Shown here piece after piece: positions 7,269-26,931 of a DNA stretch of 64,000 nt. The notes under the pieces are model-generated. The model searched no databases. It worked only from the letters and a program-made list of their open reading frames with translations, and was not told where the DNA came from. Position 1 is the stretch's first letter, and every line of letters starts with the position of its first letter. The translations under genes were made by a program, and so were the position numbers. Where the stretch lies: positions 85,951 to 149,950 of the forward strand of contig CAIVRE010000006.1 in assembly GCA_903908245.1 (NCBI GenBank), given 5' to 3'. The stretch is from Candidatus Omnitrophota bacterium. Lineage in GTDB: Bacteria > Omnitrophota > Gorgyraeia > Zapsychrales > Fredricksoniimonadaceae.

Positions 7269-7278
7269 AAGACAACCG

Positions 7279-8274: not shown

Positions 8275-8289
8275 AATGAAAGACCGTCG

Positions 8290-9285: not shown

Positions 9286-9334
9286 CCAACAGATATGTAA
9301 ACATCCCTGTTTATGTTATTATGATCGATAAAAT

Positions 9335-10234
9335 ATGCCGTTAACTGACGCCTCAAACATCCTCTGGTCCTTACTCTTGCTGATCACCGGTGCCATCACC
9401 TGTTTCTTCGACATAACCCGCCAAAAGATCCTCAACACCCATCTTGTTTTCCTGGGGATGCTGGGGGCCATCGTCCTTCTCTTCCATTCGCTCTTGTGGC
9501 ATCACGACCCGGCCACGCACATGCTCAACGGGGCCATTGCGCTGGTCGTCGGAGCCGTCCTCTATATCAGCCATACCTGGCGCGGAGGCGATGCCAAACT
9601 TTTCACGCTTTACGCCTTTCTTATGCCGCTGCCCGCCAAAAGCAACCTGTTCTCATTACCGCCGGTCGCTTTATTCATCAACACCTTCCTCGCCGGGATG
9701 TTCTTCCTGGCCCCGTTCCTCATCAAAGACATGATCCATAACCGCGCCGCCGTTATCGCCCAGGCCAGGTCCGCCGAAGAACAACAGGCCTTTCTCCGGG
9801 GGATCTCCGCCGCGTTCTTCGCGTCATGGATACTGTCCCCTGTCATGCAAACTGTCGTTAAAGCCTACCACACACCGCTCTCGTTCTTTATCGCCTACGT
9901 CGTTTTTGCCATAACCCGGAACGCCGCCATCAAGACCCGGACGGATTATATCCAGCACAATATCCAGAAACACCTGCTCATGATCGTGGCCCTGCTGGTC
10001 ACCGGCACGCTCCTTAGGATATTCCTGACCCCCTGGGCCCTGAACCCTTTTTACCTGGCCCAATATGCCGTGATCTTCCTGGCCTTTTCCGTCTCTTTTG
10101 CCGTCATCTTCCATACGATCCAGCATTTGGAGAACCACAAGGAACGGATCGCTTTCGCGCCTTTCCTGTTCATCGGGTGCGTTCTGAGCTATACGCCGTT
10201 CCTGTCACTGTTCATGCGGGCGCTCCATCATTAA
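9335..10234 (+). CDS. Polytopic membrane protein with motifs of the A24 prepilin-peptidase family (intramembrane aspartyl protease). It is a candidate peptide-processing protease.
   Basis: It has 8 or more hydrophobic segments. It has WRGGDAKLF, which matches the A24 second catalytic motif G-G-D-(V/A)-K-L. An upstream Asp in FFDITRQ lies ~50 residues before it. Confidence 0.45.
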   Translation: MPLTDASNILWSLLLLITGAITCFFDITRQKILNTHLVFLGMLGAIVLLFHSLLWHHDPATHMLNGAIALVVGAVLYISHTWRGGDAKLFTLYAFLMPLPAKSNLFSLPPVALFINTFLAGMFFLAPFLIKDMIHNRAAVIAQARSAEEQQAFLRGISAAFFASWILSPVMQTVVKAYHTPLSFFIAYVVFAITRNAAIKTRTDYIQHNIQKHLLMIVALLVTGTLLRIFLTPWALNPFYLAQYAVIFLAFSVSFAVIFHTIQHLENHKERIAFAPFLFIGCVLSYTPFLSLFMRALHH

Positions 10235-10353
10235 AAGATGATGCCGCATATGTCCGGGCATGCCCGGTACCAGTAAAATTTATTCTGGAATTAGCTAAAA
10301 GTTCTGTGTAAAGTGGTCCATCGGAAACAATATCTCCTTGAGGCTGTTAAAGC

Positions 10354-11784: not shown

Positions 11785-11802
11785 TGGCCCCTTAACCTTT
11801 AT

Positions 11803-13122
11803 ATGAAAAACCCGAAGATCATCATATTTTCGCCTCCCTACCATCATCTCGGCACCAGGGAGTTATACGGTCAAAGCGGACGGGAAGACTGGTTCCCCCT
11901 CGGCGCTTTTTCCATCACCAATGCGCTGCGGCTGGCCGGCAATGAACACACCTTTCTTTATTACCAGGAAGACCATTCTCCCCGGACTCTGGAGCGCCTG
12001 ATCAAAAGGATCAAGCCGGACATTGTCGGCATATCCTGCTTTTCGTTGACCCGGTTCGCGTGCCTTGACCTTGCGAAACGTGTTAAAAAGATCGACCGGG
12101 ATACCCTCACCATCCTCGGGGGGACCCATCCTTCGTTCCTGGATAAACAGATCATGACAAACTACCCGTTCATTGATATGGTCCTGCGGGGTTACGGAGA
12201 AACGGCCTTTCCGGATATTGCCGATGCCTTCTCCCGCCGGAAAACTTTTGACGGGATCCCGGGATTATCCTGGAGGGATAAAGGGCGCTGGATCAGGAAT
12301 CGCGACGGACAAATCCACGATGAACTATCCCTGCCGCTTGCCAAAGACATGCGCGATGCGATCCTCGGAGAGTTCCCGTCCTGGATATCCCGGGACATGA
12401 TCTCCCATACTATCCCGGTTGAGACCGCCAGGGGATGCCCGTACCATTGTTTCTTCTGCAGTAAAATAGAGCAGAAAGAAAACAGGGTCATTGACCGCGA
12501 TCCCGGTCATGTCCTCAAATATATCAAAGGGCTGTTCAAGCTTTTCGGGCCGCGTCCGATATACTTCTGCGCCCCCAATTTTACGCTCAACAAGAAAAAG
12601 GCACTGGCCCTCTGCCGGGCCTTAAAACGTTCAAAACTTCAGGTCCAATGGACATGCGGGACGCGTATCGACCTTATCGACAAAGAACTCCTCCTCGAAA
12701 TGAAAACTGCCGGCTGCCAGCGGATCTATTACGGCGTGGACTCCTTATGTCAAAGGCTGCTCCATTCCATCCACAGGGACTACACGCCGGAAAAAGCCGT
12801 CAGGGACCTGAACCTTACCGTTGCCTGCGGCCTGGCATGCGAAGCCAATTTACTGATCGGGTTCCCGGGTGAAGACCGCCGGTCCCTGTCGGAGTCGCTG
12901 TTGTTCCTGCGCAAGATCGACCCGAAGGTCTCCGTTGTTGTCCGGCCGCTGAAGATCATGCCCGGTTCGCAGCTTTACCATAAAGCGATCGAAGAAGGCT
13001 TTGATGAAACATACTGGCTCAAAGACCATGGCACCGATTTTCCGGATTATACGGGCAGCTTGCCTGCCAAAGAACTTGTTAAATACTGCCGGACCTTTAA
13101 CGAAATCAGGAGAAGAACATGA
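11803..13122 (+). CDS. B12-binding-domain radical SAM enzyme.
   Basis: ARGCPYHCFFC is present. An N-terminal B12-binding-like domain is present. Confidence 0.85.
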   Translation: MKNPKIIIFSPPYHHLGTRELYGQSGREDWFPLGAFSITNALRLAGNEHTFLYYQEDHSPRTLERLIKRIKPDIVGISCFSLTRFACLDLAKRVKKIDRDTLTILGGTHPSFLDKQIMTNYPFIDMVLRGYGETAFPDIADAFSRRKTFDGIPGLSWRDKGRWIRNRDGQIHDELSLPLAKDMRDAILGEFPSWISRDMISHTIPVETARGCPYHCFFCSKIEQKENRVIDRDPGHVLKYIKGLFKLFGPRPIYFCAPNFTLNKKKALALCRALKRSKLQVQWTCGTRIDLIDKELLLEMKTAGCQRIYYGVDSLCQRLLHSIHRDYTPEKAVRDLNLTVACGLACEANLLIGFPGEDRRSLSESLLFLRKIDPKVSVVVRPLKIMPGSQLYHKAIEEGFDETYWLKDHGTDFPDYTGSLPAKELVKYCRTFNEIRRRT

Positions 13123-13592
13123 CCCAGGCCGCTTCCAGGATCTGCCTTGCTGCCCAAAGGCTGGCACAACACGCCGGGCAATGCCTTTTCGTGACCCTCG
13201 GCCACGGCGGGTCCCCCAGGGCGAGATATATGGGCGCTTTAAAGGTCGACAACGGAATGAAGGTATTCCTGGTCTGCCGGCCCGGATCGAACAAAGTGCG
13301 GGAGATCGCCCGGGACCCCCGCGCGCAGGTCGTCCTTGCGGATGAGCCCCGTCGCCGGGTGGTCACGCTCAACGGGAACGCTTATCTGGAACGCTCAAGG
13401 ACCGTCCGCAAGAAACTTTTTACCGCTACGGCCCCTTTGAAATTGTATCCCGCCTTTAATAACGATTTCGGGGTGATCCGTTTCATCCCTGAAACACTGG
13501 AATATCTGGACCTGGATATCAGGCTTGAACCCGTCATCATTGACCTGACAGGGAGGCGCCATTGCTCGCCCAAGACACTAAAAACTTCCTGA
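13119..13592 (+). CDS. Pyridoxamine 5'-phosphate oxidase-like FMN-binding split-barrel protein.
   Basis: Its size of 157 aa and its sequence pattern are typical of PNPOx-like small flavoproteins. There is an ATGA start/stop overlap with the upstream gene. Confidence 0.55.
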   Translation: MTQAASRICLAAQRLAQHAGQCLFVTLGHGGSPRARYMGALKVDNGMKVFLVCRPGSNKVREIARDPRAQVVLADEPRRRVVTLNGNAYLERSRTVRKKLFTATAPLKLYPAFNNDFGVIRFIPETLEYLDLDIRLEPVIIDLTGRRHCSPKTLKTS

Positions 13593-15007
13593 GGTTCCTG
13601 ACCCTCACCGTCCCCGGAGGGATCGAAGATACTCTGGCCGTCCCTCTGTTCCATCCTTTAAGCCCGAAAGAGATCGGAACACATCTTAAACGCTTCGCGC
13701 AAAAGCCGTTCCCCGGCGGCCAACCGCCCAAAACGCACCTCAATATCCATATCCCGTTCTGTTCCTCCCTGTGCTCTTATTGCCATTGTTCCCGCGTCAA
13801 ACTCAAGAACAGGGAACAATTGCGTGATCATGTCGGGCTCATTATCGACCAGATCCGGACATTTGCGCCCTTGTTAAAAGGCCATGAATTCACCTCCCTG
13901 TCCCTGCTGGGAGGAACAGTATCCCTCCTGGAAGATCCCGCGATCGACCAACTCCTGACCGAAGCCCTCGGCCGATTCACATTCCGGAAGAAAACCGATA
14001 TCCATTTCGAAGGGCATCCGGTGTCCCTGACCTCCGCCAAACTGCGCCTTTTACGGCGCCGGGGCGTCAACCGCATCAACCTCGGAGTCCAGACCCTGGA
14101 TGAAAAAGTACTGAAGAACATCAAACGGAACCAGACCAGAAAAGACGTGGAAAAGTGTATCAAGGCTGTCAGGCGATCAGGCTTTCCCTGCCTGAATGTT
14201 GACGTCATCGCCGGACTGCCTGGCCAGACAGTGACCAGCTTCCTGAAGGACATCCAGGACCTGATCCGCTGGAAGGTCGATCTGATCCATATCAACCCCT
14301 TCAGCGATATTGTCGGATCAGCCTGTTACCGGGAGAACCCCGTCGATCTGGCCATGCTTTTCAACCGCCGGCAGGCCATGATCCTCAAAGCCGTTTCACT
14401 CTTGGGATCCGCCGGCTATTCCAACCGGTCGCTTGCCGGATACCAAAGGGCCGGCCTGAAATATAAAGCCGGGAAACAAACGCTTCCCCCGGACGATCAT
14501 GCCGGCGCTGTGCTGAGCCTCGGGATATTCGCCCGCAGCAGCCTTCCGGGAAGCCTAGTCTTTGAAACCCTCCCCTGCGACGACACCTTCAGTACCGCCC
14601 GTTACGCCGGCCACCCGGTCGATCAACGCTACGCCATGGCCAACTATGCCACGCTGCATCTGCTTGACGGAATGGACATCGCCGCCTTCCGGCGCCTTTT
14701 TACCGCCGGTCCCGCTGATATCTTTCAAAAAGAACTTCTGGCCCTTGCCGAAGAAGGCCTGCTGTCATCCGACGGAAAGACATGGCGCTACTGCGGCCCC
14801 TGGACCATCCCCGGACTTTTCAATTATTACTCCCTCACCAAGATATTGTACGGGAAGAAGATGCTTGATGCATTGCGGCGGACCTATGCGGCAAAATATG
14901 ATCCGGCGGCCGATCATGGCTCGCCGAAAAACCTTTTGAGGATATTCCAGGACCTCTGGTACACGCGGACCTATTACCGGTTAGGCTACAAATCCTGCTG
15001 GCTATAA
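13562..15007 (+). CDS. HemN-like radical SAM enzyme.
   Basis: NIHIPFCSSLCSYCHC is present. The N-terminal motif NFLRFLTLTVP is shared with the other HemN-like paralogs. Confidence 0.85.
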   Translation: MLAQDTKNFLRFLTLTVPGGIEDTLAVPLFHPLSPKEIGTHLKRFAQKPFPGGQPPKTHLNIHIPFCSSLCSYCHCSRVKLKNREQLRDHVGLIIDQIRTFAPLLKGHEFTSLSLLGGTVSLLEDPAIDQLLTEALGRFTFRKKTDIHFEGHPVSLTSAKLRLLRRRGVNRINLGVQTLDEKVLKNIKRNQTRKDVEKCIKAVRRSGFPCLNVDVIAGLPGQTVTSFLKDIQDLIRWKVDLIHINPFSDIVGSACYRENPVDLAMLFNRRQAMILKAVSLLGSAGYSNRSLAGYQRAGLKYKAGKQTLPPDDHAGAVLSLGIFARSSLPGSLVFETLPCDDTFSTARYAGHPVDQRYAMANYATLHLLDGMDIAAFRRLFTAGPADIFQKELLALAEEGLLSSDGKTWRYCGPWTIPGLFNYYSLTKILYGKKMLDALRRTYAAKYDPAADHGSPKNLLRIFQDLWYTRTYYRLGYKSCWL

Positions 15008-15027
15008 AGACCGCGTCGGAAAACCTT

Positions 15028-16458
15028 TCATACCCCCAGGTCATATACCGCTTGCACGAACCAGCCGTTATCCATGATCTTTAACATGAACCGCTCCTGA
15101 GAATAATCAACCGACGAATGATACTCCCGGCTGAAATTGGCCTGCAACTTTTCCAACAGGGCATCATCGTACAGGATCTTGATCCACGCAAAAAGATCGA
15201 ATAATGCCCGGAACGACCTTGTGCCCGGATAAACAAGCCGCCCGTCCTGCCAGGCCACCAGGCCCAGATGCTCCAAACGCTTCAACCCCGCTCCAAAAAC
15301 GCCCTCCAGGCTTTCCCCGAAGATCCTTTGAAAATCTTTCCTTTGGATCCCTGATAAAATATTTAAAATAATAAAATTAGCCATTACGGCATGTTTCGGA
15401 TAAGCATAACCAAAATATTCATTATCCGTCATGTCCTTTCCCGACCTTGGCAGGCACTGCATCACGGCCTGCCCCGGAAAGGTACTGATCGCATACGCCC
15501 CGATCCCCAGCGTAGCCCCGACAGATCGTTCATAAAGCACAGACTGCTCCTTTTCTCCTCCGGAGACCATTTGAAAAGCCTCATGCCCCCGCCTCAAATA
15601 CCCTCCGGAAAGGAGCATCTCCCTGCCTTTTCTGGTCATGGTATGCCGCCCCTTGAAAAAAGCGGCAATATCCCCTTTCTTCATTTGATAATAGGGCGAC
15701 GGCTGTATATTCCAGAAAGGATGAAGATGGATCACTTCCGGCTTACGCGCGATCAGGAACCGCAGGTCCGCCAGAAAGCTTGCCTCTGTCTGCAACGGAA
15801 GGCCTGCCATCACATCAATATTCAGGAAATCAAAACTCAAACTCCGGATATTATCGATACAACGCTCGACCTCTTCCCTGCTCTGCAAGCGATCTACTGC
15901 GTTAAGAACTTTCTTGTTCAGGGTCTGCACGCCAAGGCTTATCCGGGAAACTCCCCCTTCTTTCAAAGCCTTCAATTTATCAAGCGTTAATGTCCGCGGG
16001 CTGCCTTCAAACATAAAATAAGCCTTTTCCCGTACAGCAAACGACCGGCGGATCGACCCGAGGAGCCCCGTGATCTGAGCCGCGCTCAATAATGAAGGGG
16101 TCCCTCCGCCAAAATTACATATATCAACAGGCACGCCCCTGGCATGAGGCGCATAAGCATCTATCATCCCCAACAAATACTGATAATACGCCTGCATCTC
16201 CGCTTTTTGAGCAACGGCCTTTCGCTCGCACCAGCAGTAAAGGCAACGCTTCAGACAAAAAGGAATATGAAAATAAAGAGAAAAAGCCGGAGAATAAGAA
16301 CGATACCCCCGCTGAAAGAAACGGTCGATATGCTTCCCCATGACAGTCCCGGGAACCGGATTAAAAAGGGCTCCGCCGAACATGTCCACCTGGCCCAGAG
16401 GCAGCTTAAGTGTCAGGAATCTCAGGAAATTAATATCCCGGATCTTCATGGCCTTCAT
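15028..16458 (-). CDS. HemN-like radical SAM enzyme. The start was chosen at MKAMKIRD, which gives an ATGA overlap with the upstream stop; the ORF track extends to 16515.
   Basis: YFHIPFCLKRCLYCWC and GGGTPS are present. The N-terminal motif INFLRFLTLKLP is present. Confidence 0.8.
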   Translation of the reverse strand: MKAMKIRDINFLRFLTLKLPLGQVDMFGGALFNPVPGTVMGKHIDRFFQRGYRSYSPAFSLYFHIPFCLKRCLYCWCERKAVAQKAEMQAYYQYLLGMIDAYAPHARGVPVDICNFGGGTPSLLSAAQITGLLGSIRRSFAVREKAYFMFEGSPRTLTLDKLKALKEGGVSRISLGVQTLNKKVLNAVDRLQSREEVERCIDNIRSLSFDFLNIDVMAGLPLQTEASFLADLRFLIARKPEVIHLHPFWNIQPSPYYQMKKGDIAAFFKGRHTMTRKGREMLLSGGYLRRGHEAFQMVSGGEKEQSVLYERSVGATLGIGAYAISTFPGQAVMQCLPRSGKDMTDNEYFGYAYPKHAVMANFIILNILSGIQRKDFQRIFGESLEGVFGAGLKRLEHLGLVAWQDGRLVYPGTRSFRALFDLFAWIKILYDDALLEKLQANFSREYHSSVDYSQERFMLKIMDNGWFVQAVYDLGV

Positions 16459-17813
16459 TGTCCATTCCCGGAGGAAAAATACTCGCGGCCCGCGCTGCGG
16501 AACGCCCGGAGCCAATGCTCCATCGAGCGCCCCTTGATGGCCGCCATATACGACGGGATCGCTTCCTCGTGGTCGCTTAACCAGTACGACTCGTCAAACC
16601 CCTCTTCCAGAGCCTGCTGATACAGCGGCGATCCAGGCATAATATACAGCGGAGAAACATCCACCACGCAAGAAGCCGGAAGCCGCTTTAAATTCTGAAA
16701 AGACTCTTTCAGGGTAACTTCTGTTTCTCCGGGGAAACCGATCATCAGGTGGACGCAAGGCCTTATCCCCGTTGACGCAACCAACGCCAAGTTCCGGATC
16801 GCCAGCCCCGGAGCATAGTTCTTCCCCGACGAACGCAGGATCCTGCGGGATAACGAATCCAGCCCGAAGAAAATACCCCGGCAGCCGGCCTTCTTCATCC
16901 CAAGCAAAAGCTCCTCATCGACAAGGTCGACCCTTGTTGTACATACCCAGGAAAAACAGAACCGCTCGCGGATGATCGCCGAACACAGCCGCAGGGCATA
17001 TTCCCTGTTAAGCGTAAAATTCATATCATGGAAATAAACAAAATCCCGGCAGCCTTCAGGGATCAGGTAAAGCTGTGCGATGACCTGATCGATGTTTTTT
17101 TCTGAAACCTTCCGCTGCCAAAGCCCGACGGTACTGCAGAACCGGCAAGCGAACGGACACCCCCGATGCGTTTCAACAGGGATCCCGTCGTGCATCAGGA
17201 TCGCGGCGTCCGGGTCTTTCAGCGGTTTGACCGGAAAAGCCTTAAGATCGATCAGCGGTAATTCGTCAAGACCGGTCAACGACGGACGGGATGCGCTGCG
17301 GTGAGGCTTCCCCCCGGACCGGAACGTTATCCCCGCCACAGACGAAAGGTCCCGGCCCGCATCGAGCGCCCTCAACAGCGCCTCAAAGGAATCCTCGCCT
17401 TCTCCCCTGACAACATAATCAACACACGGATACGAAGACAGTATCTGTCCGTCCAGGAAAGTGGCATGGATCCCGCCCATGATCACCGTGACCGCCGGGT
17501 CGACTTCCTTGACGAGCCGGGCAAGCTCGACACAGGCAAAACGGTTGAACGATTGGCATGAAATACCAATGACCGAAGGCCGCTCCCGCCGGATATACCG
17601 GGCCAGCGTCCCTGGCGAATAGTCGGTACCGCAATAGATCCGGCAGCGCGCCTTCAACCGCTCCTGAAGACAGGACGCTATTGACGCCAGCCCCAGGGAG
17701 AGCCGCAGCGGGGCTTCAAAAGGGTCCCGAAGGCGCGGGTTCCCCAAATGCCGTCCGGGTGGCAGAAAAAAAAGAATGTTAAAGCTGTTTATCCGGGATC
17801 CCATGATCATCAA
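16455..17813 (-). CDS. B12-binding-domain radical SAM enzyme.
   Basis: HRGCPFACRFC is present. An N-terminal B12-binding-like region is present. Confidence 0.85.
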   Translation of the reverse strand: MMIMGSRINSFNILFFLPPGRHLGNPRLRDPFEAPLRLSLGLASIASCLQERLKARCRIYCGTDYSPGTLARYIRRERPSVIGISCQSFNRFACVELARLVKEVDPAVTVIMGGIHATFLDGQILSSYPCVDYVVRGEGEDSFEALLRALDAGRDLSSVAGITFRSGGKPHRSASRPSLTGLDELPLIDLKAFPVKPLKDPDAAILMHDGIPVETHRGCPFACRFCSTVGLWQRKVSEKNIDQVIAQLYLIPEGCRDFVYFHDMNFTLNREYALRLCSAIIRERFCFSWVCTTRVDLVDEELLLGMKKAGCRGIFFGLDSLSRRILRSSGKNYAPGLAIRNLALVASTGIRPCVHLMIGFPGETEVTLKESFQNLKRLPASCVVDVSPLYIMPGSPLYQQALEEGFDESYWLSDHEEAIPSYMAAIKGRSMEHWLRAFRSAGREYFSSGNGQ

Positions 17814-17819
17814 AACCCG

Positions 17820-19133
17820 CTAACCGTTCCGCGCGGTAACCCGCTCGAATTTCTTCACCCATTTCCACTGCTCCTGCGCCGGGATCGACCCGGTGTAATA
17901 CGGCAGCGCCTCCGCATGATCCTCAAGCCAGTACGCTTCATCGAACCCCTCCCCAAGGGCGACGTCATATAACGGCGCCCCGGGCACGATCTCCAGCGGA
18001 TGCACCGCGAGAGTGATCCCGGGATGAAGCTTCCTGCACCCGATCAACGATTCCATCAGCGTTTCTTTGGTCTCCTGCGGAAATCCTACAATAAGGTTGA
18101 AATGAACCCTTATCCCCATCTCCGCTGTCAAATTGGCATTCGCGATAGCCACCTCGGGATCATACTCCTTATGGATCGAACGCAAGACAGTGCCGGAAAG
18201 CGACTCCACTCCGAACAGGATCATTTTGCAGCCCGCTTTCTTCATGATCTTCAAAAGCGGCTTGTCGATCAGATGGACCCTGGTCTGACAGCCCCAATGC
18301 AGATCCATGCCACTGGCAATGACCGCGGAACAAAATGCGCGCGTATACGCTTTATCCAACGTAAAGGTCAGATCCGGGAAAATAATATGCTTTCGATACG
18401 CTTCAGGAATAAGGCGGATCTGTTCTATGGCGCGCTCGACGCTTCTCTTGACGGTCTTCCGCCCCCAAAACCCGACGGCACTGCAAAAAAGACACACAAA
18501 AGGGCATCCGCGCGTTATTTCCACCGGTAATCCGGACAAAATATCTTCTTTTTCCCAGGATCGGCCCAAAGGCTGCAATTGATATTTGGAATAATCGATC
18601 AACGGGAATTCGTCAAGGCTCGCCACCCTGGCCCGAGGCGCTGTACGCATGACTTTCCCTGAATGAAGAAAAGAAATACCCCGGATCTTGCGCAGATCCT
18701 TTCCCTGCCGAAGGGCGTCGAGAAGATCAAGAAAAGTTATCTCCCCCTCGCCGCGAACAATATAATCCACATCCGGACAGGTGCGAAGGATCTGCCGGTC
18801 CAAACACGTCGCGTGAGCCCCCCCCAGGATCACCGTCACGGAAGGATCCAGGGCCTTCATCAATCGGGCCAGCTCCAGGCAGGCGAACCGATTATAAGAT
18901 ACGCAGGATAAACCGATCACGGAAGGCCGATTCGTCCGGAGAAATTCCTTTAACGCCGCGATGGAATAATCTCCCGATGAATACGGGATACAGGTTATAT
19001 CCGAATGATGCTCAACATATGCCGCGATCGATGCTATCCCAAGATCAATATGAAATGGCGGAACAACGGTCTCGTCGAACTTAAAGGACGGCAGCAGATG
19101 CCTGTCAGGAGGATTGAACAATACGACCCGCAT
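17820..19133 (-). CDS. B12-binding-domain radical SAM enzyme.
   Basis: TRGCPFVCLFC is present. It is a paralog of 16455-17813. Confidence 0.85.
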   Translation of the reverse strand: MRVVLFNPPDRHLLPSFKFDETVVPPFHIDLGIASIAAYVEHHSDITCIPYSSGDYSIAALKEFLRTNRPSVIGLSCVSYNRFACLELARLMKALDPSVTVILGGAHATCLDRQILRTCPDVDYIVRGEGEITFLDLLDALRQGKDLRKIRGISFLHSGKVMRTAPRARVASLDEFPLIDYSKYQLQPLGRSWEKEDILSGLPVEITRGCPFVCLFCSAVGFWGRKTVKRSVERAIEQIRLIPEAYRKHIIFPDLTFTLDKAYTRAFCSAVIASGMDLHWGCQTRVHLIDKPLLKIMKKAGCKMILFGVESLSGTVLRSIHKEYDPEVAIANANLTAEMGIRVHFNLIVGFPQETKETLMESLIGCRKLHPGITLAVHPLEIVPGAPLYDVALGEGFDEAYWLEDHAEALPYYTGSIPAQEQWKWVKKFERVTARNG

Positions 19134-20330
19134 TTAAATGGCCTTCCTTACTGCAGACGCCCCGCCGAACCACGCCCCCGGGATCTTGACCCCGGCCATA
19201 TCCTTACGCAACATCCTGACAAGCGCAGCGGCCATCCCCGAGGCTGAAAGCTGTTTGAACAAAAGGACTTCGCTGCGGATATGGTCGGACAATAAACGCG
19301 CCCGGGCCGGTTGTTCCCGGAAGTTCAGCGCCCCGCCATAACCTTCAAACGGAATGACCACCGCCCGCTTGGCATGCCTCAGCAAACTTAACGACGTATG
19401 ATACGGAGCCGGACAGATGCAGACATCACTCTCCGCAATAAGCTGGTCATAGCGGTCCGTCCACCTTACCAGACGGCCATTGGGCACTTTCTTCTTTGCC
19501 ATCAGTCCCTGGAACATCCGCCATTCCCCGTCAGTTGTCGACGGGCCGGCAACAAAGATATATTCATAGCCATCGCCTGAAATATCGCTGGCTTTAATGG
19601 CTGCCGCAATGATCTGCGGATAATACGCCCCGCCGCCGCGGACAACCGCCACCCGGACAACTCCCTTGCGGACAAATCCCGCCTTGCCTTCGCCCGGCTT
19701 GATCGCCGGAGCCTCAGGCACAAGATAGCCTGTAAAAACAACCTTGCGCTCGTTCTTCTTAAAGAATTCACGATACGCGCGCCGGCCAATTCCGGCAGGA
19801 TAAAGGCCGGACATATAATCCATTTCGATCCGCGGGCACAAAATAAAGATACGCTGATAAAGGCTCAGGATGAAGTCCAGCGAACGCCCTCGTCGGGCGG
19901 TCAACAGCGGGTATCCGGCAATGGAGAAGAGCGGGACTTTCTGCGAAGATAATGCCATTAAGGAAGGCAACAACTCGTCACGGCACTCGCCGCGGCCCAA
20001 CGGAAAAAATTCTGTAACAAAGACACCCGGCTTTGCCTGTTGAACAATATCCAGGCATTCCTTCGCCCGGATGGCAGAAGAAAAAGGATCTGCGGCCGCC
20101 GGATACCTGAAATTCGCCCGGCTGTTAAATGGCCGGCTCAAGGAATGCACCACCCCCGACCGGTCAAGGCTGGCCGCCGGCTGGTCACAGCCGCCCTGAA
20201 TAAAAAAGAAGTTCCTTTGAGGGAACTTCTCTTGATATATCCCGGCGAACGCCGCTACACGCGACGTATGCCCAAAACATTCGTAATGAGTATAATAAAC
20301 CCCGATCGTCTTGCGCAAGGGTGATCCATT
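19134..20330 (-). CDS. GT-B fold glycosyltransferase (GT1/MGT/GT28-like). The start is uncertain; the track ORF reaches 20432, but that extension overlaps the peptide gene in another frame, so a TTG start near 20330 is proposed.
   Basis: The N-terminus has KTIGVYYTHYECFGHTSRV, resembling the GT-B N-terminal glycine/His motif. The C-terminus has ESDVCICPAPYHTSLSLLRHAKRAVVIPF, typical of the GT-B donor-binding domain. Confidence 0.5.
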   Translation of the reverse strand, partial: NGSPLRKTIGVYYTHYECFGHTSRVAAFAGIYQEKFPQRNFFFIQGGCDQPAASLDRSGVVHSLSRPFNSRANFRYPAAADPFSSAIRAKECLDIVQQAKPGVFVTEFFPLGRGECRDELLPSLMALSSQKVPLFSIAGYPLLTARRGRSLDFILSLYQRIFILCPRIEMDYMSGLYPAGIGRRAYREFFKKNERKVVFTGYLVPEAPAIKPGEGKAGFVRKGVVRVAVVRGGGAYYPQIIAAAIKASDISGDGYEYIFVAGPSTTDGEWRMFQGLMAKKKVPNGRLVRWTDRYDQLIAESDVCICPAPYHTSLSLLRHAKRAVVIPFEGYGGALNFREQPARARLLSDHIRSEVLLFKQLSASGMAAALVRMLRKDMAGVKIPGAWFGGASAVRKAI

Positions 20331-20340
20331 GGTCAACACT

Positions 20341-20595
20341 TCAATAAGAAGTATGTGACGCCGTATTCGTATGATCAAAACAACCCGCGGTCGTCTGAAG
20401 GCTGTTCGCGTGGTTCGTATGGTCTCCCGCACTCGCGTTAAAAGCCGCGCCCAGCGCCGCCATTCCGGCTACCGTGGACAATCCCACCTTAAGGATCGTC
20501 TCCTTGCTGACAAACCCGTCCTCATCCATCACAAACCCCTTAAGGCTTTTAACAACATCATCCTTCTTAAGAAGTCTTTTTTTCTTGAGCGCCAT
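20341..20595 (-). CDS. Candidate RiPP precursor peptide of 84 aa with a C-terminal His-Xaa-(Ser/Thr/Asn)-rich core.
   Basis: The sequence is MALKKKRLLKKDDVVKSLKGFVMDEDGFVSKETILKVGLSTVAGMAALGAAFNASAGDHTNHANSLQTTAGCFDHTNTASHTSY. A strong Shine-Dalgarno, GGAAGGAAAG, lies 4 nt upstream of the ATG. It overlaps the 3' end of the SPASM rSAM gene by 29 nt, on the same strand. Residue use is atypical for an enzyme: K-rich N-terminus, hydrophobic middle, H/T/N/S-rich tail. Confidence 0.5.
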   Translation of the reverse strand: MALKKKRLLKKDDVVKSLKGFVMDEDGFVSKETILKVGLSTVAGMAALGAAFNASAGDHTNHANSLQTTAGCFDHTNTASHTSY

Positions 20596-21988
20596 AACGC
20601 TTTCCTTCCGTCCAGCGGTTGAAGATATCGGCTTGGTCCCCGCCTTCGATCAGGCGGCTGAAAATATGCTCGTACTGAAACGCCTGTATCTTCTGCATTG
20701 ACGAACAGGCGGTTTTTGGAACGATGTTCTTCTGCTCGGCATAATTGACCACCGGGCAATACCCCATCCACGGGCTGAACACGGAACTGTAATGCCAAAG
20801 ATTCACGCAGGAAGCCTGCAACAGATTGAGCAGGTTTTCCTTATTAAGTATAGCATCAAATTCCTCATTCACAATATTCCCCAGCTTGAACATTTCCTCC
20901 CCCAGCATCCGCGCCTCGTCACACGGATAGGCACTGCCGTCCGGCATATACACCATCGTGGAACGGCCGGCCCCGCATGGGCTCATCATATCCACATAAC
21001 CCGGGTCTCTTTTGGCCAGGACCTTGGTAAGGATGACCCGCGCAACACGTTCGCTCAAGTGCCGCCCCTGACGGTTGATCTTGATGATATGCTCAAATCC
21101 GCGTTGATAGAAATCACAAAATTCTTCCGGTGTGACCCCGATATCCCGCCAGGAACAACGCGCCGATCCCATGCAATTCGCAGGCCGAAGCGATATCTCT
21201 TCCTGCCCCAGGCTCACATACTCATCAATGATCCGTTCAGGATGCGCCAGGGAATGTTTGGTGATCGTGGGCAACAGCGTGACTTTCCGGCCAAATTTAT
21301 CCTTGAACCGCCTGATCCTGGCAACCACCTCGCTGTAAGTCCCGCGGCCCTCTATGTCCACCCGATTACGGTCATGAATGTCTTTCGGGCCATCCAGCGA
21401 AGAACAGACATCCACATCGTGTTTGGCCAGGAATGCCATTTTTTTGTCATCCAGGAGCATCAAATTGGTCACCAGCACCAGCTGAAGTTTCTTGCCCAGT
21501 GTGTTGAACTTGCGGGCATTCACGACCAGAAGCTCCAGCACCGGCCAATTGAGCACCGGCTCACCGCCCTGGAATTCCAGGACGACCGATGGATTGGCGA
21601 CATCAAAAAGATATTTCAGCACGCGCCCGGCCACCTCGATCGTCATATCCTGCGATAAAGTGCCTCCTTCTGCCTGGCAATAGGAACACCGCAGATTACA
21701 GCGTTTTGTCAGCACGGCAATATGCAATGAGGTGTCTGTAAAGAGATTGGCGTTCAGGGACCGGAACCCGGTAATGACATCCGCGATGTTCGACTGATCC
21801 ACGACGATCCCGCGCGTGCGCAGGCGTTGGGCAAGGGCATCGGAAGACTTAAGGCGCAAGGCATTCAGCTGCCGGAATTCGGCAGGGGTCAGCGCATCCC
21901 AGCACCCCATCATATTGCTGACAAGGTATTTCCCGTTGATCTTCGCGGAATTGAACGGCAGGATAACAATATCATTTTCGTTCTTCAT
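20567..21988 (-). CDS. Radical SAM/SPASM enzyme (anSME-like) with a ~100-aa N-terminal extension, possibly a peptide-recognition (RRE-like) domain. It is the candidate maturase for the adjacent peptide.
   Basis: LTKRCNLRCSYCQAEGG is present. The C-terminus has multiple Cys (C..C...CSSMQ), consistent with SPASM. It is 473 aa. Confidence 0.85.
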   Translation of the reverse strand: MKNENDIVILPFNSAKINGKYLVSNMMGCWDALTPAEFRQLNALRLKSSDALAQRLRTRGIVVDQSNIADVITGFRSLNANLFTDTSLHIAVLTKRCNLRCSYCQAEGGTLSQDMTIEVAGRVLKYLFDVANPSVVLEFQGGEPVLNWPVLELLVVNARKFNTLGKKLQLVLVTNLMLLDDKKMAFLAKHDVDVCSSLDGPKDIHDRNRVDIEGRGTYSEVVARIRRFKDKFGRKVTLLPTITKHSLAHPERIIDEYVSLGQEEISLRPANCMGSARCSWRDIGVTPEEFCDFYQRGFEHIIKINRQGRHLSERVARVILTKVLAKRDPGYVDMMSPCGAGRSTMVYMPDGSAYPCDEARMLGEEMFKLGNIVNEEFDAILNKENLLNLLQASCVNLWHYSSVFSPWMGYCPVVNYAEQKNIVPKTACSSMQKIQAFQYEHIFSRLIEGGDQADIFNRWTEGKRYGAQEKKTS

Positions 21989-21997
21989 AATGGCCGA

Positions 21998-22732
21998 TCA
22001 AGGATTGTCCGGTAATGGTGTGGTGAACGGCCCCTTGCAAAAGGCTTTAATATCGGCATCCTCGATCCCGTCGCAATAATCCTTATCTTCTGCATGACGG
22101 GCAAACCTGAAATAGGCAAGATCCGATTCCAGCTGCTTCGCATCCGCCCCTTCGAACAGCATCTTGCAATCAACGACATTCTGATAATTCACCGCTGTCC
22201 AGGAAAGAGGATTATCGCCCACCATCTCGCGCACAAATTGCTGGCACTGCCGCGGGCCTTTCACATACCCCCGCGCAAAAGAGATCAAACGGATATCCCA
22301 ATCCCGCTCTGATTTAGGATAAAAAACCTGCACTTTCGCGTGCAAACGGTCAAGAAGATCCCGGCTCGGCTGCTGCAATAACGAACAAAAAATGGATTCC
22401 AGTTCATTAAGGTCCTTGGACGGCTTGCAATTTTCGGCAGCAAGGGCCTTTTTTATCCGAAGGTACTGATTTTCCTGCGAAGGAAAACCCGCGGGACAAT
22501 TCTTTTGAGAAAAACAGGACAGGTCCTCGATCTCTTTCGAGTCGACTATGTCAAACTTGTACCCCAGGCGGATCGCCTTGTGCTCCCACTCAATCCGCTC
22601 CTCCAAAGTAGGCACGGCCGGCGCTTCAGTCCTCTCGACATCTTTGGCCAACAAAGAAGGCGTAAACCCCGTTGCGCAAAATAAAACAAGGACACCGGTA
22701 AGAATAACGGAAACTTTCCCCCAAGAGATCAT
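21998..22732 (-). CDS. Hypothetical exported Cys-containing protein (signal peptide, 8 Cys).
   Basis: The N-terminus is MISWGKVSVILTGVLVLFCATGF, then a hydrophilic domain. There is a 4-nt overlap with the upstream ORF. Confidence 0.45.
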   Translation of the reverse strand: MISWGKVSVILTGVLVLFCATGFTPSLLAKDVERTEAPAVPTLEERIEWEHKAIRLGYKFDIVDSKEIEDLSCFSQKNCPAGFPSQENQYLRIKKALAAENCKPSKDLNELESIFCSLLQQPSRDLLDRLHAKVQVFYPKSERDWDIRLISFARGYVKGPRQCQQFVREMVGDNPLSWTAVNYQNVVDCKMLFEGADAKQLESDLAYFRFARHAEDKDYCDGIEDADIKAFCKGPFTTPLPDNP

Positions 22733-23172
22733 TTCTTCCCCTTCTTGCCGGTCTTGCCGGTCTTGCTGGTCTTGCTGGTCTTGACTTCCTCAGCCTCAAG
22801 TTCTTTAATAAGATCTTCGATCTCCTTGTCTTCCGCCTCTTTCACCATCGTCGGAGATGCGGAAAAGAGAGCGCGCTGCAACAGCAGCTTGAGCCCTTCG
22901 GCATTGGCCTTGAGGCTGGAAAAATAATGGGCATAATTCAGCAGTTCCTGCGAAAAGTCCAGCGCCAGTTGATCAAAGTCTTTCTCTTTCCCTTTAGGCG
23001 AAAGCCACACATCCACCGTTCCTTTTTTTCCTTCATCCAGGCGCACATACGCGCGGTCCATGAAAACATACCCCGCGGAATGAATGGACTGTAACGGATA
23101 AACATTGGTATTCACCGGCAATTTGACCCAACCATCGGCCTTCTGGAAAACTTTCGCCATATACATCTCCAA
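22729..23172 (-). CDS. Hypothetical 147-aa protein with a C-terminal K/T/S/G low-complexity tail.
   Basis: The tail ends ...EAEEVKTSKTSKTGKTGKKGKK and is encoded by 9-nt direct repeats at 22745-22800. Internally it has ELLNYAHYF, a weak resemblance to the LLNDYxLRE signature I recall for HxsD; this is unverified. Confidence 0.45.
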   Translation of the reverse strand: MEMYMAKVFQKADGWVKLPVNTNVYPLQSIHSAGYVFMDRAYVRLDEGKKGTVDVWLSPKGKEKDFDQLALDFSQELLNYAHYFSSLKANAEGLKLLLQRALFSASPTMVKEAEDKEIEDLIKELEAEEVKTSKTSKTGKTGKKGKK

Positions 23173-23226
23173 GAAATATTACAGATTAAGAAGAAAATCT
23201 TTAAAAATTATAACAAATTCCCAACA

Positions 23227-23601
23227 TCATTCAAGCAGTCGTTCCACCTTAAGCGCGAGGAATTCATTGCGAAAAGGCTTGGCAAGATAATCATTGGCGC
23301 CTGCCTTCATGAACCGTTCAACATAGTCCATATCCAGCGCGCCCGACACCACGATGATCTTCACATGGTTCGCGGCAGGATCCATTCTAAGCCGCTGACA
23401 TACCTCAAAACCGTCCATCCCGGGCATCCGCAGGTCCAGCAGGATCAGGTCGGGCCGGAACTCCGCGAACTTTGCCTCGGCGGCAAGGCCATCATAGGCG
23501 ACATCCACCATATACTTCTTCTGATTGACCAGCACCCGGCGCAGGGCATTAGACATTTCATGGTCGTCATCAACGATCAATATTTTCTTCGGATCCGCCA
23601 C
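23227..23601 (-). CDS. Single-domain response regulator (CheY-like receiver).
   Basis: KILIVDDD, the phospho-acceptor motif DLILLDLRMPGMDG, and the K in YLAKPF are present. Confidence 0.8.
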   Translation of the reverse strand: MADPKKILIVDDDHEMSNALRRVLVNQKKYMVDVAYDGLAAEAKFAEFRPDLILLDLRMPGMDGFEVCQRLRMDPAANHVKIIVVSGALDMDYVERFMKAGANDYLAKPFRNEFLALKVERLLE

Positions 23602-23605
23602 CGGG

Positions 23606-23974
23606 CTATCCTTCCAGTAAAGATATGACTTTTAAATGATAGAACCGCAGATATTTTTCTTTTTCCCGTTCAGGCAAAGCTTCGAACTTCCCGCCGGCAC
23701 GATAGCCCTTGTATTGCTCGAAATACCCCGCCCAAACAACCTTTAAACACACCTCCAACCGCCCGATCTCGGGCAACTCCATCACCAAGCGGACGACCTG
23801 GTCCGGCTGAAGCCCTTCCGGCGACAAAAAACACATGCCATCAGGGGTAATATTGACCACTTGACTGGCAAAGATCTTGCCCGATCCCGCAAGAACCTCG
23901 CCCTGCGCGGCAATATCAACCCCGACTCTGCGCCATTCACGCGATTCATTCATAATATTATTATCAAGCCTCAT
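23606..23974 (-). CDS. PilZ-domain (c-di-GMP binding) protein.
   Basis: The RxxxR motif (REWRR) and D/NxSxxG-like NITPDGMCF are present. Confidence 0.45.
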   Translation of the reverse strand: MRLDNNIMNESREWRRVGVDIAAQGEVLAGSGKIFASQVVNITPDGMCFLSPEGLQPDQVVRLVMELPEIGRLEVCLKVVWAGYFEQYKGYRAGGKFEALPEREKEKYLRFYHLKVISLLEG

Positions 23975-24085: not shown

Positions 24086-25744
24086 TTACACGCCCGACAT
24101 GATCGCGGGAACATCGACCTCGGCTGTGGCCGTCGGCCTAATATTGAACTTCTCCACCAGCACCTTGGCCACATTGGGCGACAGGAACGCCGGAAGGGTC
24201 GGGCCCAGGCGGATATTCTTGACCCCCAGGAAAAGCAATGCCAGCAACACAGCCACCGCCTTCTGCTCATACCACGCGATATCGTAGGAGATCGGCAACT
24301 TGTTGATATCATCAAGCCCGAACGCCTCTTTAAGTTTAAGCGCGATGACCGCCAGTGAATACGAATCATTGCACTGACCAGCATCAAGCACGCGCGGGAT
24401 CCCGCCGATATCGCCCAGCTTCAGTTTGTTATAACGGTATTTGGCGCACCCCGCGGTCAGGATGACCGCGTCCTTCGGAAGGGCGGCGGCCACATCCGTA
24501 AAATACTGACGGTCCTTGTTTCGCCCGTCGCAACCGGCCATCACCACAAAACGTTTAATCGCTCCGCTCTTGACCGCGGCCACCACTTTATCGGCCAGTG
24601 CCATCACCTGGTTATGGCCGAAGCCGCCCACCAGTTCACCTGTTTCGATCTCTTTCGGAGCCGGACAGGACTTTGCGCACTTGATGATCGCAGCAAAATC
24701 CTTTCTTCCGCCTTCAGGCCGTTCCCCGATATGCACGGCCCCCGGATATCCGGCCGCACCCGTCGTAAACATCCTGCTCAAATAAGACCCTTTAACAGGA
24801 ATGATACAATTGGTCGTCATCAGGATCGGCCCGCTGAAATTCTCGAAATCCGAACCCTGATGCCACCAGGAACTGCCATAATTCCCGACGAAATTATCAT
24901 ACGCCTTGAACTTCGGATAATAATGGCCGGGAAGCATTTCACTGTGCGTGTACACATCAACGCCCGTCCCCCTGGTTTCTTCCAGAAGGTCTTCCAGGTC
25001 GCGCAGATCATGGCCGGAAATAAGAATGCCCGGATTCTTGCGCACGCCAAGGTTCACTTTGGTTATCTCCGGATTGCCGAACCTTTCGGTATTGGCCTTA
25101 TCCAGAAGAGCAAGCGTTGTCACCGCATTCCCTCCTGTCTTCATGACCATCGCGACCAGGTCATCGACGCTCAGGTCCTTCACCGTAGCGACCAAGGCAT
25201 CAACGATCTGCCCATAGATCGCCGGATCCTCATGCCCCAGGTCCGCCGCGTGATCGGCATACGCCGCCACCCCTTTAAGCCCGTACATAATAAGCTCGCG
25301 CAATGAACGGATATCCTCATTGCCCGTTGTCAACACACCCACACTGCCCGCCTTGGCACGGATCGCCTCGTCCGTATCGGCCGTCCAGGTCGCACATTCA
25401 GGCGCCGAAGCCTGGCATCCGCAACTCTGCGACGCGCCTAACACCTTGTGTTTCCAGATATCGCGAACTTTAAGGGCTTCCCTGATCCGTGCAATGATCA
25501 CCGACTCATCAAAATTGGCATTGGTGATCGTCATAAATATGGCGGAGGTCATAAACCTCCCTGTCTTAAAATCCAATGCAATGTCCTTTTGCCTGGCCTT
25601 ATCGGCCCACACCGCGATCCCCTTGACCGTAAAGATCAACAGGTCCTGAAGATTGGCGAGCTCATCACTCTTGCCGCAAACACCCTTGACCTTGCAGCCG
25701 GTATTCCCGGCTGTTTCCTGGCACTGATAACAGAACATGCTCAT
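24086..25744 (-). CDS. hcp: Hybrid cluster protein (hydroxylamine reductase / prismane protein).
   Basis: The N-terminus [25 protein letters not shown] is the Hcp N-terminal Cys motif. It is 552 aa. Confidence 0.9.
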
Positions 25745-25758
25745 AATTTCCCCCTTTT

Positions 25759-26484
25759 TTAAATGATCTCGCCCCGAAGCGAGATCGTATATTCTTTCAA
25801 CACAATGCCCCTGCCTGAACGGCGCACCGCATCCTCAACGAGGCTGACCGTCCCCCCGCAACAGGGCACTTCCATCCGCACCATGGTGACCGAACGGATA
25901 TTATTCACCTGGAATATCCCGGTGAGCTTTGCAACATACCCCTCCAGGTCTTCATCGAGCTTGGGACAGAACACGACCAGGACTTTCCCCTTAAGGAACT
26001 TGCGATGAAAATCAGCATAAGTGAACGGCACACAATCCGCGCTGACCACAAGGTCCGCGTCCTTAAAAAATGGCGCATGGGGATCAAGCAAACGCAACTG
26101 CACCGGCCATTGCATCAGTTCCGAAAGCAGCGGCCCCGAGCCGGCCTCCGGCTTCACGCAAGAGCCTGCCGGAGATCGTCCCCGAAAATCCTGCGTCATG
26201 CTCCCCGGGCAACCGCATGCCATGGGCTTACGGGCTTCTGTTTCTTTATGCATCTTCACTTTCTCCTCGCTGAATTTATCGGCCTCCCGCTCCTCGATCG
26301 CGATCGCCCCCCGGGGGCACTCCCCAAGACAGGCCCCAAGGCCGTCGCACAATGCATCCGCCGCCAGCCGCGCCTTGCCGTTGACGATCCTGATCGCCCC
26401 TTCATGACAGGAAGGGACGCACACCCCGCAACCATTGCATTTGTCTTCATCGATCCTGACAATACTTCGTTTCATAAACCCCAC
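25759..26484 (-). CDS. 4Fe-4S dicluster ferredoxin-domain protein, co-transcribed with hcp.
   Basis: Two CxxCxxCxxxCP motifs are present: [11 protein letters not shown] and [12 protein letters not shown]. Confidence 0.65.
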
Positions 26485-26529
26485 CTGCGATTAATGACAC
26501 CATGGCAGTATCATATTTTAATAAAAAAA

Positions 26530-26931
26530 TCATCTCTTCATCAACGACGCGATCGTGACTCCACGCAAATGCGCCAGCGCCATGGCCTCGATCTGCTTGA
26601 TCTCGCGGCGCAAAGGACATGTCTTCACGCATTCACACAACTTCTTCCTGAAAAGACAGTCCCCCATTGAGACCGGCCCCTGAAAAAGTGCTATCAGATC
26701 GGCCAAACGGATCTTTTCAACCGGTAAAACCAGCGTAAAACCGCCGTTCTTCCCCTTGGCCGATGCCAGATATCCGGACTTCTGAAGCGCCTGAAGGGTC
26801 TTGCGCATGAACGGCCTGGGAAGTTCAAGGTCGCGCTCAAGATCTCGCGCCGACACTCTTTCCGGCGCCTTCCCGGCCATGTGGATCAGAGCGCGCACCG
26901 CATAATCTGTATTTCGGGTCAACAGGTTCAT
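26530..26931 (-). CDS. Rrf2-family transcriptional regulator (NsrR/IscR-like).
   Basis: MNLLTRNTDYAVRALIHMA is an Rrf2 N-terminal winged HTH. Cys residues are present for a possible Fe-S cluster. It is located upstream of the ferredoxin-hcp pair. Confidence 0.8.
   Translation of the reverse strand: MNLLTRNTDYAVRALIHMAGKAPERVSARDLERDLELPRPFMRKTLQALQKSGYLASAKGKNGGFTLVLPVEKIRLADLIALFQGPVSMGDCLFRKKLCECVKTCPLRREIKQIEAMALAHLRGVTIASLMKR

Follow-up and report, generated by a model that had tools for sequence, protein, structure and literature searches.

A conserved small-peptide gene of Omnitrophota beside an HxsB-type radical SAM enzyme, with a leader resembling that of Flp prepilins

Introduction

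The canonical His-Xaa-Ser (HXS) antiphage system is encoded by HxsD-HxsB-HxsC-HxsA (TIGR03976-03979), with the order D-B-C-A kept in 99.6% of systems and 99.7% of systems found in Pseudomonadota; its peptide HxsA is matured in the cytoplasm in dependence on radical S-adenosylmethionine enzymes (hereinafter rSAMs), which leaves +8 Da on an SHRSS motif, undergoes a non-canonical N-terminal processing and acts in the periplasm, while HxsD forms a complex with HxsC (Li et al., Nat Commun 2026, PMC13128918). A representative HxsA from an Aeromonas plasmid (192 aa) combines a signal peptide, basic HRS/HSS repeats and a peptidoglycan-binding domain. Here we describe an 84-codon open reading frame (ORF), 20341..20595 on the minus strand of a 64,000-nucleotide stretch of Candidatus Omnitrophota DNA (GenBank assembly GCA_903908245.1, contig CAIVRE010000006.1, positions 85,951 to 149,950; hereinafter the window, to which coordinates refer unless a locus is named). 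It is a genuine, conserved gene under purifying selection and, judged by its sequence and setting, very probably encodes a substrate of the neighboring HxsB-type rSAM.

The window locus shares with the canonical system an HxsB-type rSAM with a SPASM domain, an HxsD-like gene upstream, the gene order D ... B ... A, and a substrate that has triplets of the His-x-Ser type and, towards the N-terminus, a hydrophobic export-like stretch; by analogy, its peptide would be expected to be modified in the cytoplasm and then processed N-terminally and exported. Unlike the canonical system, it has no HxsC among the rSAMs scanned; its substrate measures 84 aa as against 192-214 aa, has neither HxsA homology nor a peptidoglycan-binding domain, and bears motifs that are mostly H-x-N, non-basic and placed at the extreme C-terminus. 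This type of locus also adds a conserved GT-B glycosyltransferase (GT), a Cys-rich protein, a small rSAM and a Peptidase_A24 (prepilin-peptidase) homologue, has up to ~12 rSAM genes nearby, and sits at a syntenic chromosomal site, not in a mobile defence island, its hosts being Omnitrophota (with some archaea) instead of Pseudomonadota. Our literature search found no work on HxsA3/HxsA4, on the present subfamily or on peptides of Omnitrophota modified by rSAMs, and this Hxs-like branch, which lacks HxsC and travels with a GT and a prepilin-type peptidase, is apparently undescribed.

Results

The small ORF is a conserved gene under purifying selection

The ORF runs from ATG to TGA and its 84-aa product, read directly from the sequence, is MALKKKRLLKKDDVVKSLKGFVMDEDGFVSKETILKVGLSTVAGMAALGAAFNASAGDHTNHANSLQTTAGCFDHTNTASHTSY. 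A Shine-Dalgarno-like GGAAGGAAAG (20600..20609, minus strand, read as the reverse complement) stands 4 nt 5′ of the ATG, within the 3′ end of the rSAM gene 20567..21988 (minus), which itself terminates inside the peptide ORF with an overlap of 29 nt. The ORF, its Shine-Dalgarno sequence, its tail and the overlap are thus present as an earlier note on this DNA had claimed, on the minus strand, and the arrangement that it proposed, a precursor-type gene between a SPASM rSAM and a glycosyltransferase, is real, conserved and, on the rSAM side, translationally coupled. Among all stop-to-stop ORFs in the six frames of the window, this is the only one with at least three H-x-[SNT] triplets per 30 residues, and the four triplets observed in the tail were matched in 2.4% of composition-preserving shuffles of the tail; it is, however, conservation that decisively places the gene beyond chance. 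A search of 5.8 billion proteins recovered 141 homologues of 83-106 aa, all unnamed or 'hypothetical' and mostly from metagenome-assembled genomes (MAGs) of Candidatus Omnitrophota, and, with each GTDB species represented by one genome, a scan gave 28 loci with the peptide gene, all in Omnitrophota or in MAGs labelled 'Planctomycetales'. In 29 distinct gene sequences, 25 of the 27 conserved amino-acid columns vary synonymously at the codon level; the median pN/pS is 0.34, and the median dN/dS stands at 0.18 (108 unsaturated pairs).

The earlier note had allowed that its ORF might prove unconserved, free of purifying selection, or an artefact of a GT frame extended at its N-terminus. The first two doubts are answered by the figures above. 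As for the third, the GTG-started ORF 19134..20432, which covers the peptide gene in another frame, is a mechanical extension of the GT gene: counted from a start at 20339, the alignments with all GT homologues begin around residue 9-13, and public gene calls put the start at 20318 (394 aa), so that the GT begins after the peptide stop and the peptide is no artefact of its frame. One claim did not stand, namely that the gene is absent from automated annotation. The exact protein is recorded from NCBI, ENA and Logan assemblies, and its homologues in NCBI MAGs are listed as 'hypothetical protein'; gene finders therefore do call the gene, only without a name.

A search for a second precursor in the window was negative: no further ORF carries a tail rich in H-x-[SNT], and the cluster genes lie too close together to leave room for one; another candidate gene, ORF 156..581, looks non-coding. 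Some other genomes have two copies of the peptide gene (9950..10219 and 15675..16091 in locus L013; 9911..10219 in L031). In these, one copy takes the usual place after HxsB and the other stands alone upstream, in L013 beside an additional pair of genes, for a Cys-rich protein and an A24 homologue.

Architecture and conserved motifs of the peptide

The peptide comprises a Lys-rich leader that ends in DEDG (residues 1-27), FVSKE followed by a hydrophobic helix (28-55), and a tail (56-84) with H62-x-N64, C72, H75-x-N77 and, at the C-terminus, H81-x-S83-Y84. In 46 aligned sequences, 24 positions are invariant (S17, L18, D24-K31, T33-L35, V37-L39, T41, H62, N64, H75, N77, H81, S83 and Y84), and C72 and E32 are nearly so. 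The N-terminal invariant block reads ...DEDG-FVSKE-TILKVGLST..., and the C-terminal core, which comes after the invariant DEDGFVSKETILKVGLST block, reads H-x-N ... C-x-x-H-x-N-x-x-x-H-x-S-Y. It is the N-terminal DEDG/FVSKE and hydrophobic block, and not the tail as the earlier note would suggest, that is the most conserved part of the peptide, and the stretch from helix to tail is the most variable and has no conserved cleavage motif. Three of the recurring H-x-(S/T/N) triplets that had first drawn attention to the tail are indeed conserved (H62-x-N64, H75-x-N77, H81-x-S83); the first HTN (59-61) is specific to the window, and the pattern is not a loose repeat. Lys and Arg are absent from the tail, which has two Asp and five His. 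Hydropathy peaks over residues 34-52 (Kyte-Doolittle maximum 1.65), and an AlphaFold2 (AF2) model places a helix at 31-55; with its low confidence (predicted local distance difference test score, pLDDT, 60.8), we used this model for the helix alone and did not rely on the hairpin that it draws in the tail.

An HxsB/HxsD-type module with no HxsC found

The overlapping rSAM gene encodes a 473-aa HxsB-type rSAM/SPASM maturase with a CX3CX2C motif at C97/C101/C104. It scores 372.1 bits with the HxsB model TIGR03978, marginally above the cutoff of 370, in a full-length match (9-460 against 1-466), and shows 31-34% full-length identity to HxsB proteins annotated by PGAP on plasmids; the next-best models are those of the thioether-forming SCIFF and PapB maturases. 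Its orthologue in L002 (8605..10023 of that locus) reaches 360 bits, and since the cutoff in this way splits one orthologous group, annotation of the clade will be inconsistent. Upstream lies a gene for an HxsD-like protein (22729..23160, minus; 143 aa by public gene calls), which carries a precomputed Pfam match to HxsD (PF27806) and matches TIGR03976 with 27.8 bits (E = 2.5e-6), below the cutoff of 50. Its LYW and LLNDYxLRE motifs are only partly visible (VYP; ELLNYAHY) and BLASTP finds no similarity between it and annotated HxsD proteins; across 27 loci it is kept at 57-87% identity. HxsC (TIGR03977, cutoff 267.9 bits) was not among the listed matches of any of the nine window rSAMs scanned with NCBIfam (those starting at 850, 1854 and 10354 were compared with Pfam only), and the best scores in two related loci, 26.9 and 49 bits, are generic rSAM background. 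The maturation by paired SPASM rSAMs that the earlier note had envisaged is accordingly not supported, and its broader idea of a relation to His-Xaa-Ser systems holds through the HxsB score, the HxsD-like gene upstream, and a sub-threshold match of the peptide to HxsA3.

This last match (NF038309) spans nearly the whole peptide, with residues 14-84 on profile positions 5-79 of 81, and it recurs, always below the cutoff, in all 46 members of the family and in all 32 members of a wider superfamily. The latter, retrieved in a profile search of 1.84 billion representatives, consists of 75-140-aa proteins with a K-rich start, the consensus K-x-L-K-D-F-x-K-D-E-(D/S)-G-x-(V/I)-S-K-E-x-(I/V)-L-K-(V/I)-G-L, and His-rich tails often ending in HSSY. 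(The top match of that search, P0121, is a 4220-aa Thr/Ala/Asn-rich tandem-repeat adhesin with 33 weakly matching stretches, a summed low-complexity artefact that we set aside.) The peptide is like HxsA3 and HxsA4 (NF038313) in its size class of ~80-100 aa, its K-rich start, F-x-K-D-E-x-G block and hydrophobic segment, and in the His-rich tail, which in those families ends in ...HSSY; unlike them, it has three spaced H-x-N/S triplets and a Cys in place of H-x-S runs. HxsA4 is matched by five superfamily members and NCBI gives this name to one relative, but not by the window peptide, and the sub-cutoff HxsA3 score, the lack of an HxsA4 match and the different tail explain why the subfamily has been left as 'hypothetical protein'. 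One superfamily member, P0209 (tail ...HNSHSNS...SHSNHTSHTSHGSHGSHNSW), is encoded on a 63-kb ENA contig (ERZ27252302; L035) together with archaeal ribosomal protein genes (L34e, L24e, S28e, L7Ae), Pelota and FtsZ, and with HxsD and a 574-aa HxsB-like rSAM about 5 kb from its gene; this archaeal setting indicates that the HxsB/HxsD small-peptide system crosses the domain boundary.

A leader block in register with that of Flp prepilins

The strongest conservation of the peptide, ...F-x-(K/M)-D-E-D-G27 / F28-V-S-K-E32 followed by the hydrophobic helix, has the pattern of a class III signal peptide, with G27 at -1, F28, E32 at +5 and a hydrophobic stretch, and at least 90% of the superfamily keep G27. 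The sequence of annotated Flp pilins runs M-x-K-L-F-x-R-F-L-K-D-E-S-G / A-T-A-I-E-Y-G-L-I..., and an hhalign comparison of the superfamily profile with them returned an in-register K-x-x-x-F-x-K-D-E-x-G-x-x-x-x-E at 58.8% probability, which pairs Gly27 with the Gly at which Flp is cleaved and Glu32 with the Flp Glu at +5. The peptide shares with Flp and type IVb prepilins, whose A24 peptidases are of the TadV/CpaA type, a leader with F-x-(K/M)-D-E-(S/D)-G as its last residues, a Glu at the fifth position past this Gly, a hydrophobic helix and, if it is cut at Gly27, a small mature size of ~57 aa; its neighborhood likewise keeps an A24 gene without a methyltransferase domain.

Conserved gene neighborhood

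Synteny was assessed by tblastn in 33 non-redundant loci, of which many are truncated. An HxsB-like gene is present in 30, an HxsD-like gene in 27, the GT and a secreted Cys-rich protein of 230-260 aa in 23 each, a small rSAM of ~337 aa in 20, a Peptidase_A24 homologue in 16, and T2SSE and T2SSF in eight and seven, respectively. The peptide gene is almost always preceded by the HxsD-like and HxsB-like genes; those for the Cys-rich secreted protein and the GT-B enzyme come after it. As is generic for precursors of ribosomally synthesized and post-translationally modified peptides (RiPPs) of the rSAM/SPASM type, it is a small co-oriented ORF that adjoins or overlaps the HxsB-like gene in ~30 loci, with an invariant leader block and C-terminal motif. 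The nearest relatives of the window locus are from Omnitrophota, with 87% HxsB identity to L004. In three further, distant loci (HxsB identity 31-60%), an A24-like gene stands beside the small rSAM in all three, and one of them, L043, shares the wider synteny of the window: a Cache kinase, Rrf2, an iron-sulfur (Fe-S) protein, Hcp ... a response regulator, HxsD. The locus of the relative named HxsA4 by NCBI (L034) has HxsD, an HxsB-like rSAM, a 246-aa Cys-rich protein and the peptide, and then ~10 rSAMs.

In one Omnitrophota subclade (L001, L002, L006, L008, L011, L013, L014 and L023), genes for MshEN-domain proteins, two T2SSE ATPases, T2SSF and a 342-aa secreted protein lie directly 5′ of hxsD. 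Within 10 kb on either side in the eight T2SSE/T2SSF loci we found no canonical pilin or Flp N-terminus; L026 and L034 are the only loci that have such N-termini, and these lie far from the cluster.

Other genes of the window locus

The earlier note had missed that the neighborhood of the peptide includes a Peptidase_A24 homologue, the proposed leader peptidase (9335..10234, plus strand; 299 aa), and as many as a dozen or so rSAM genes. The A24 homologue has both catalytic-Asp motifs (FFDITRQKILN and RGGDAKLF) and 35% identity to Pfam-annotated homologues. Directly 5′ of it lie two paralogous small rSAM/SPASM genes of 331 aa each (7279..9285, plus), whose position is that of the small rSAM found beside A24 elsewhere. 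The 394-aa GT (19134..20318, minus) is specific to these loci, with 79 homologues that come essentially all from peptide loci. Its sequence profile found nothing significant against the PDB, so a fold search was needed for its identification: an AF2 model from a 45-sequence alignment (pLDDT 91.6) matched, in Foldseek against the PDB, GT-B enzymes of the GT1/GT28 type (CalG1, MurG, OleD) with E-values down to 5e-14. The secreted or membrane-anchored Cys-rich protein (21998..22732, minus; 244 aa) has no family match and is a distant relative of the 230-263-aa proteins encoded 3′ of the peptide gene elsewhere (blastp 4e-7 to p263 of L002).

Accessory tailoring genes, of which the set varies among loci, follow 3′ of the GT on the same strand (15028..19133, minus): two B12-binding rSAMs (17820..19133 and 16455..17747) and a HemN-like rSAM (15028..16458). 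Convergent to these run genes for a HemN-like rSAM, a B12-rSAM, a PNPOx-like protein and a second HemN-like rSAM (10354..15007, plus). Altogether, twelve rSAM genes fall within ~21 kb (850..21988), with starts at 850, 1854, 6003, 7279, 8290, 10354, 11803, 13562, 15028, 16455, 17820 and 20567: three B12-binding ones, a B12-rSAM-like one at 6003 without a Pfam B12-domain match, four HemN-like ones, HxsB, three with SPASM domains and the small one at 1854 without a SPASM match. This is an exceptional density of rSAMs around a single detectable precursor gene, and the run of ~10 rSAMs in L034 is similar.

The rSAM cluster is flanked by genes for an AMP-binding-like protein (2857..4032, minus), an ApbA/PanE-type reductase (4032..4958, minus) and a 320-aa protein with the PP-loop motif SGGKDS and no Pfam match (4955..5917, minus); since an ApbA gene also ends the cluster in L002 and L003, the genes of 2857..5917 may share its pathway. 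Directly 5′ of the hxsD-like gene, a PilZ-domain protein and a single-domain response regulator (23227..23974, minus) form a pair that is kept in L004 and L017, the response regulator also in L043, and this conservation hints at regulation of the cluster by cyclic di-GMP or a two-component system. A hybrid-cluster protein (Prismane), a multi-Fer4 protein and an Rrf2 regulator (24086..26931, minus) adjoin the cluster, as they do the Hxs-like cluster of L043, which is probably mere conserved synteny. The best sigma-70-like match, with an extended -10 (10/12; 23207..23234, minus), lies just 5′ of the hxsD-like gene; though weak, it is a possible operon promoter, and promoter and terminator scans of the region gave nothing above shuffles.

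Discussion

A probable substrate of an HxsB/HxsD-type module

Taken together, these data make it probable that the ORF encodes the ribosomally made substrate of an HxsB/HxsD-type rSAM maturation module, and that it represents an undescribed, mainly Omnitrophota branch of the HxsA3/HxsA4-like superfamily of small peptides. We propose that, in the cytoplasm, HxsB with HxsD would bind the conserved N-terminal block and introduce a radical-mediated modification into the His-x-(Asn/Ser) tail. Its likely site would be the invariant terminal H-x-S-Y, which parallels the modified SHRSS of canonical HxsA, and/or Cys72; the Cys, along with SCIFF and PapB as the second-best matches of the rSAM, allows for a thioether as an alternative. 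The GT-B enzyme and the extra rSAMs specific to each locus (B12-dependent, HemN-like and SPASM) may then decorate the tail further. With the Gly27 block in register with the Flp site, we infer that modification of the tail in the cytoplasm precedes membrane insertion and removal of the leader between Gly27 and Phe28: the hydrophobic helix 31-55 would insert into the membrane with the tail outside, and the A24 aspartic peptidase would take off the Lys-rich leader as it does in Flp and type IV prepilins. Given the Flp alignment and the widely conserved A24 gene, it is reasonable to suppose a cut after Gly27, and from these sequence features we give cleavage there by the A24 enzyme about an even chance. 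The product would have ~57 residues, be anchored in the membrane or built into a filament, and display a modified His-rich tail, for which a surface or pilus function, metal binding or defence may be the role.

Several points weigh against parts of this reconstruction. On the side of the maturase, HxsD of the canonical system binds HxsC and not HxsB (PMC13128918). On the side of the substrate, the membership in the HxsA family that the earlier note had in mind was not borne out: the HxsA model TIGR03979, which it had named for the search, gives no match to the peptide at E<=1, an hhalign comparison of the peptide family with the Aeromonas HxsA reaches 8% probability, that is, no detectable homology, and the only family match of the peptide, to HxsA3, has 25 bits (E = 1.2e-5) against a cutoff of 65. 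As for the peptidase, the window homologue scores 23.3 bits with Pfam, below the gathering score of 26.5, and is encoded 10 kb from the peptide gene, and no A24 gene was seen in L001, L009, L012, L034 and L035. The hhalign match to Flp spans 17 columns only, and the profile of the narrower family brings it to 18.7%; Pfam searches of 32 superfamily members found neither Flp_Fap (PF04964) nor N_methyl (PF07963) at E<=10, nor, with the peptide included, any other consistent identity. Lys at +4 and +9 and Thr for Tyr at +6 are not typical of pilins, the hydrophobic stretch begins later than in Flp prepilins, and the C-terminal tail is, unlike theirs, a predicted rSAM substrate. Finally, the window has neither T2SSE nor T2SSF, the pilus ATPase and platform genes, which adjoin the cluster in one subclade of eight loci.

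Alternative readings

A more specific form of the proposal would make the peptide a Flp-like mini-pilin, whose class-III-type leader is cut by A24 to yield a ~57-residue subunit that bears a sugar and rSAM-made crosslinks or methyl groups on its His-rich tail and is built into a type IV filament. It is favored by the several Omnitrophota in which T2SSE and T2SSF are contiguous to the cluster, directly upstream of it in the one subclade, with no other pilin gene or pilin-like ORF. We regard this reading as less likely than not.

RiPPs heavily tailored by rSAMs, such as proteusins (polytheonamides) and the SPASM-dependent thioether peptides (SCIFF, ranthipeptides), offer another comparison, as there, too, a precursor lies beside a SPASM maturase, with several B12-dependent rSAM methyltransferase-like genes and a conserved Cys in the core; they differ from the window system in their type of leader, and the latter has an HxsD partner and a membrane-helix segment inside the precursor and lacks a known RiPP recognition element and a protease/exporter set. 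In another reading, the peptide would be a conventional secreted RiPP, with a leader that extends through about residue 57 and includes the hydrophobic segment, and a modified ~27-residue tail released as an antimicrobial or metal binder. The layout of leader and core with the most conserved block N-terminal, the conserved Cys, His and Tyr of the tail, the many tailoring rSAMs and the GT, as in heavily modified RiPPs, and the thioether-forming SCIFF and PapB models next in line for the rSAM all accord with it. The conserved gene set, however, holds no C39/S8-type leader protease or ABC exporter that we could see, its sole protease being the membrane-bound A24 type; the passage from helix to tail, where the release would occur, is the most variable region and offers no conserved cleavage motif; and the hydrophobic segment is conserved as strongly as a structural element would be. 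We consider this reading unlikely.

We think it quite unlikely, too, that the matured peptide is the functional equivalent of the canonical HXS peptide and blocks entry of phage DNA from the periplasm. HxsB and HxsD homologues do act here, on our reading, upon a His-x-Ser-type substrate with an export-like N-terminus, and canonical HXS is a proven defence system (PMC13128918). Yet HxsC, the partner of HxsD and essential in the canonical system, is missing among the rSAMs scanned. The tail, with its two Asp and five His, lacks the Lys/Arg of the basic HRS/HSS repeats of canonical HxsA; such an acidic or neutral tail makes electrostatic capture of DNA unlikely and, together with the absence of a peptidoglycan-binding domain, argues against the canonical DNA-trapping mechanism. 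The locus is moreover chromosomal and syntenic across Omnitrophota, among housekeeping or pilus genes and not in defence islands, and PADLOC (2023) returned for six proteins of the cluster only generic viperin-type rSAM matches and no match to a defence family.

That the ORF is a spurious frame which by chance overlaps the 3′ end of the rSAM gene and the 5′ extension of the GT, or that it encodes a small membrane protein which stays unmodified and has nothing to do with the rSAM, is highly improbable: it is short, overlaps two longer mechanical ORFs and has no Pfam match, but its conservation with synonymous variation and low dN/dS, the invariance of its C-terminal motif and stop position, its fixed place directly after the HxsB-like genes in ~30 loci and the start of the GT past its stop all speak against this.

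Implications

Canonical HXS was recognized as a defence against phage entry only in 2026, and the chemistry behind the +8 Da on SHRSS is still unsolved. The window locus suggests that the HxsB/HxsD module may also work without HxsC, on a small and easily synthesized substrate with one invariant C-terminal H-x-S-Y site, and such a substrate would give a simpler entry to HxsB chemistry. The conserved set in which it occurs, namely HxsD, HxsB, the peptide, the Cys-rich protein, the GT-B enzyme, the small rSAM and the A24 peptidase, is apparently undescribed.

Omnitrophota are nanobacteria that have mostly not been cultured and may depend on hosts, and surface structures are believed to be important to them. 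Were the peptide indeed a Flp-like mini-pilin, this would be the first link of HxsB/HxsD-type radical-SAM peptide maturation to prepilin processing, and would suggest that the whole HxsA3/HxsA4-like superfamily, its archaeal members included, encodes surface-displayed modified peptides. The main interest of the system lies in a tractable minimal substrate for HxsB chemistry and in a possible link between RiPP-type maturation and prepilin processing, which, if true, would join RiPP maturation to type IV filament biogenesis, two fields that have so far been separate.

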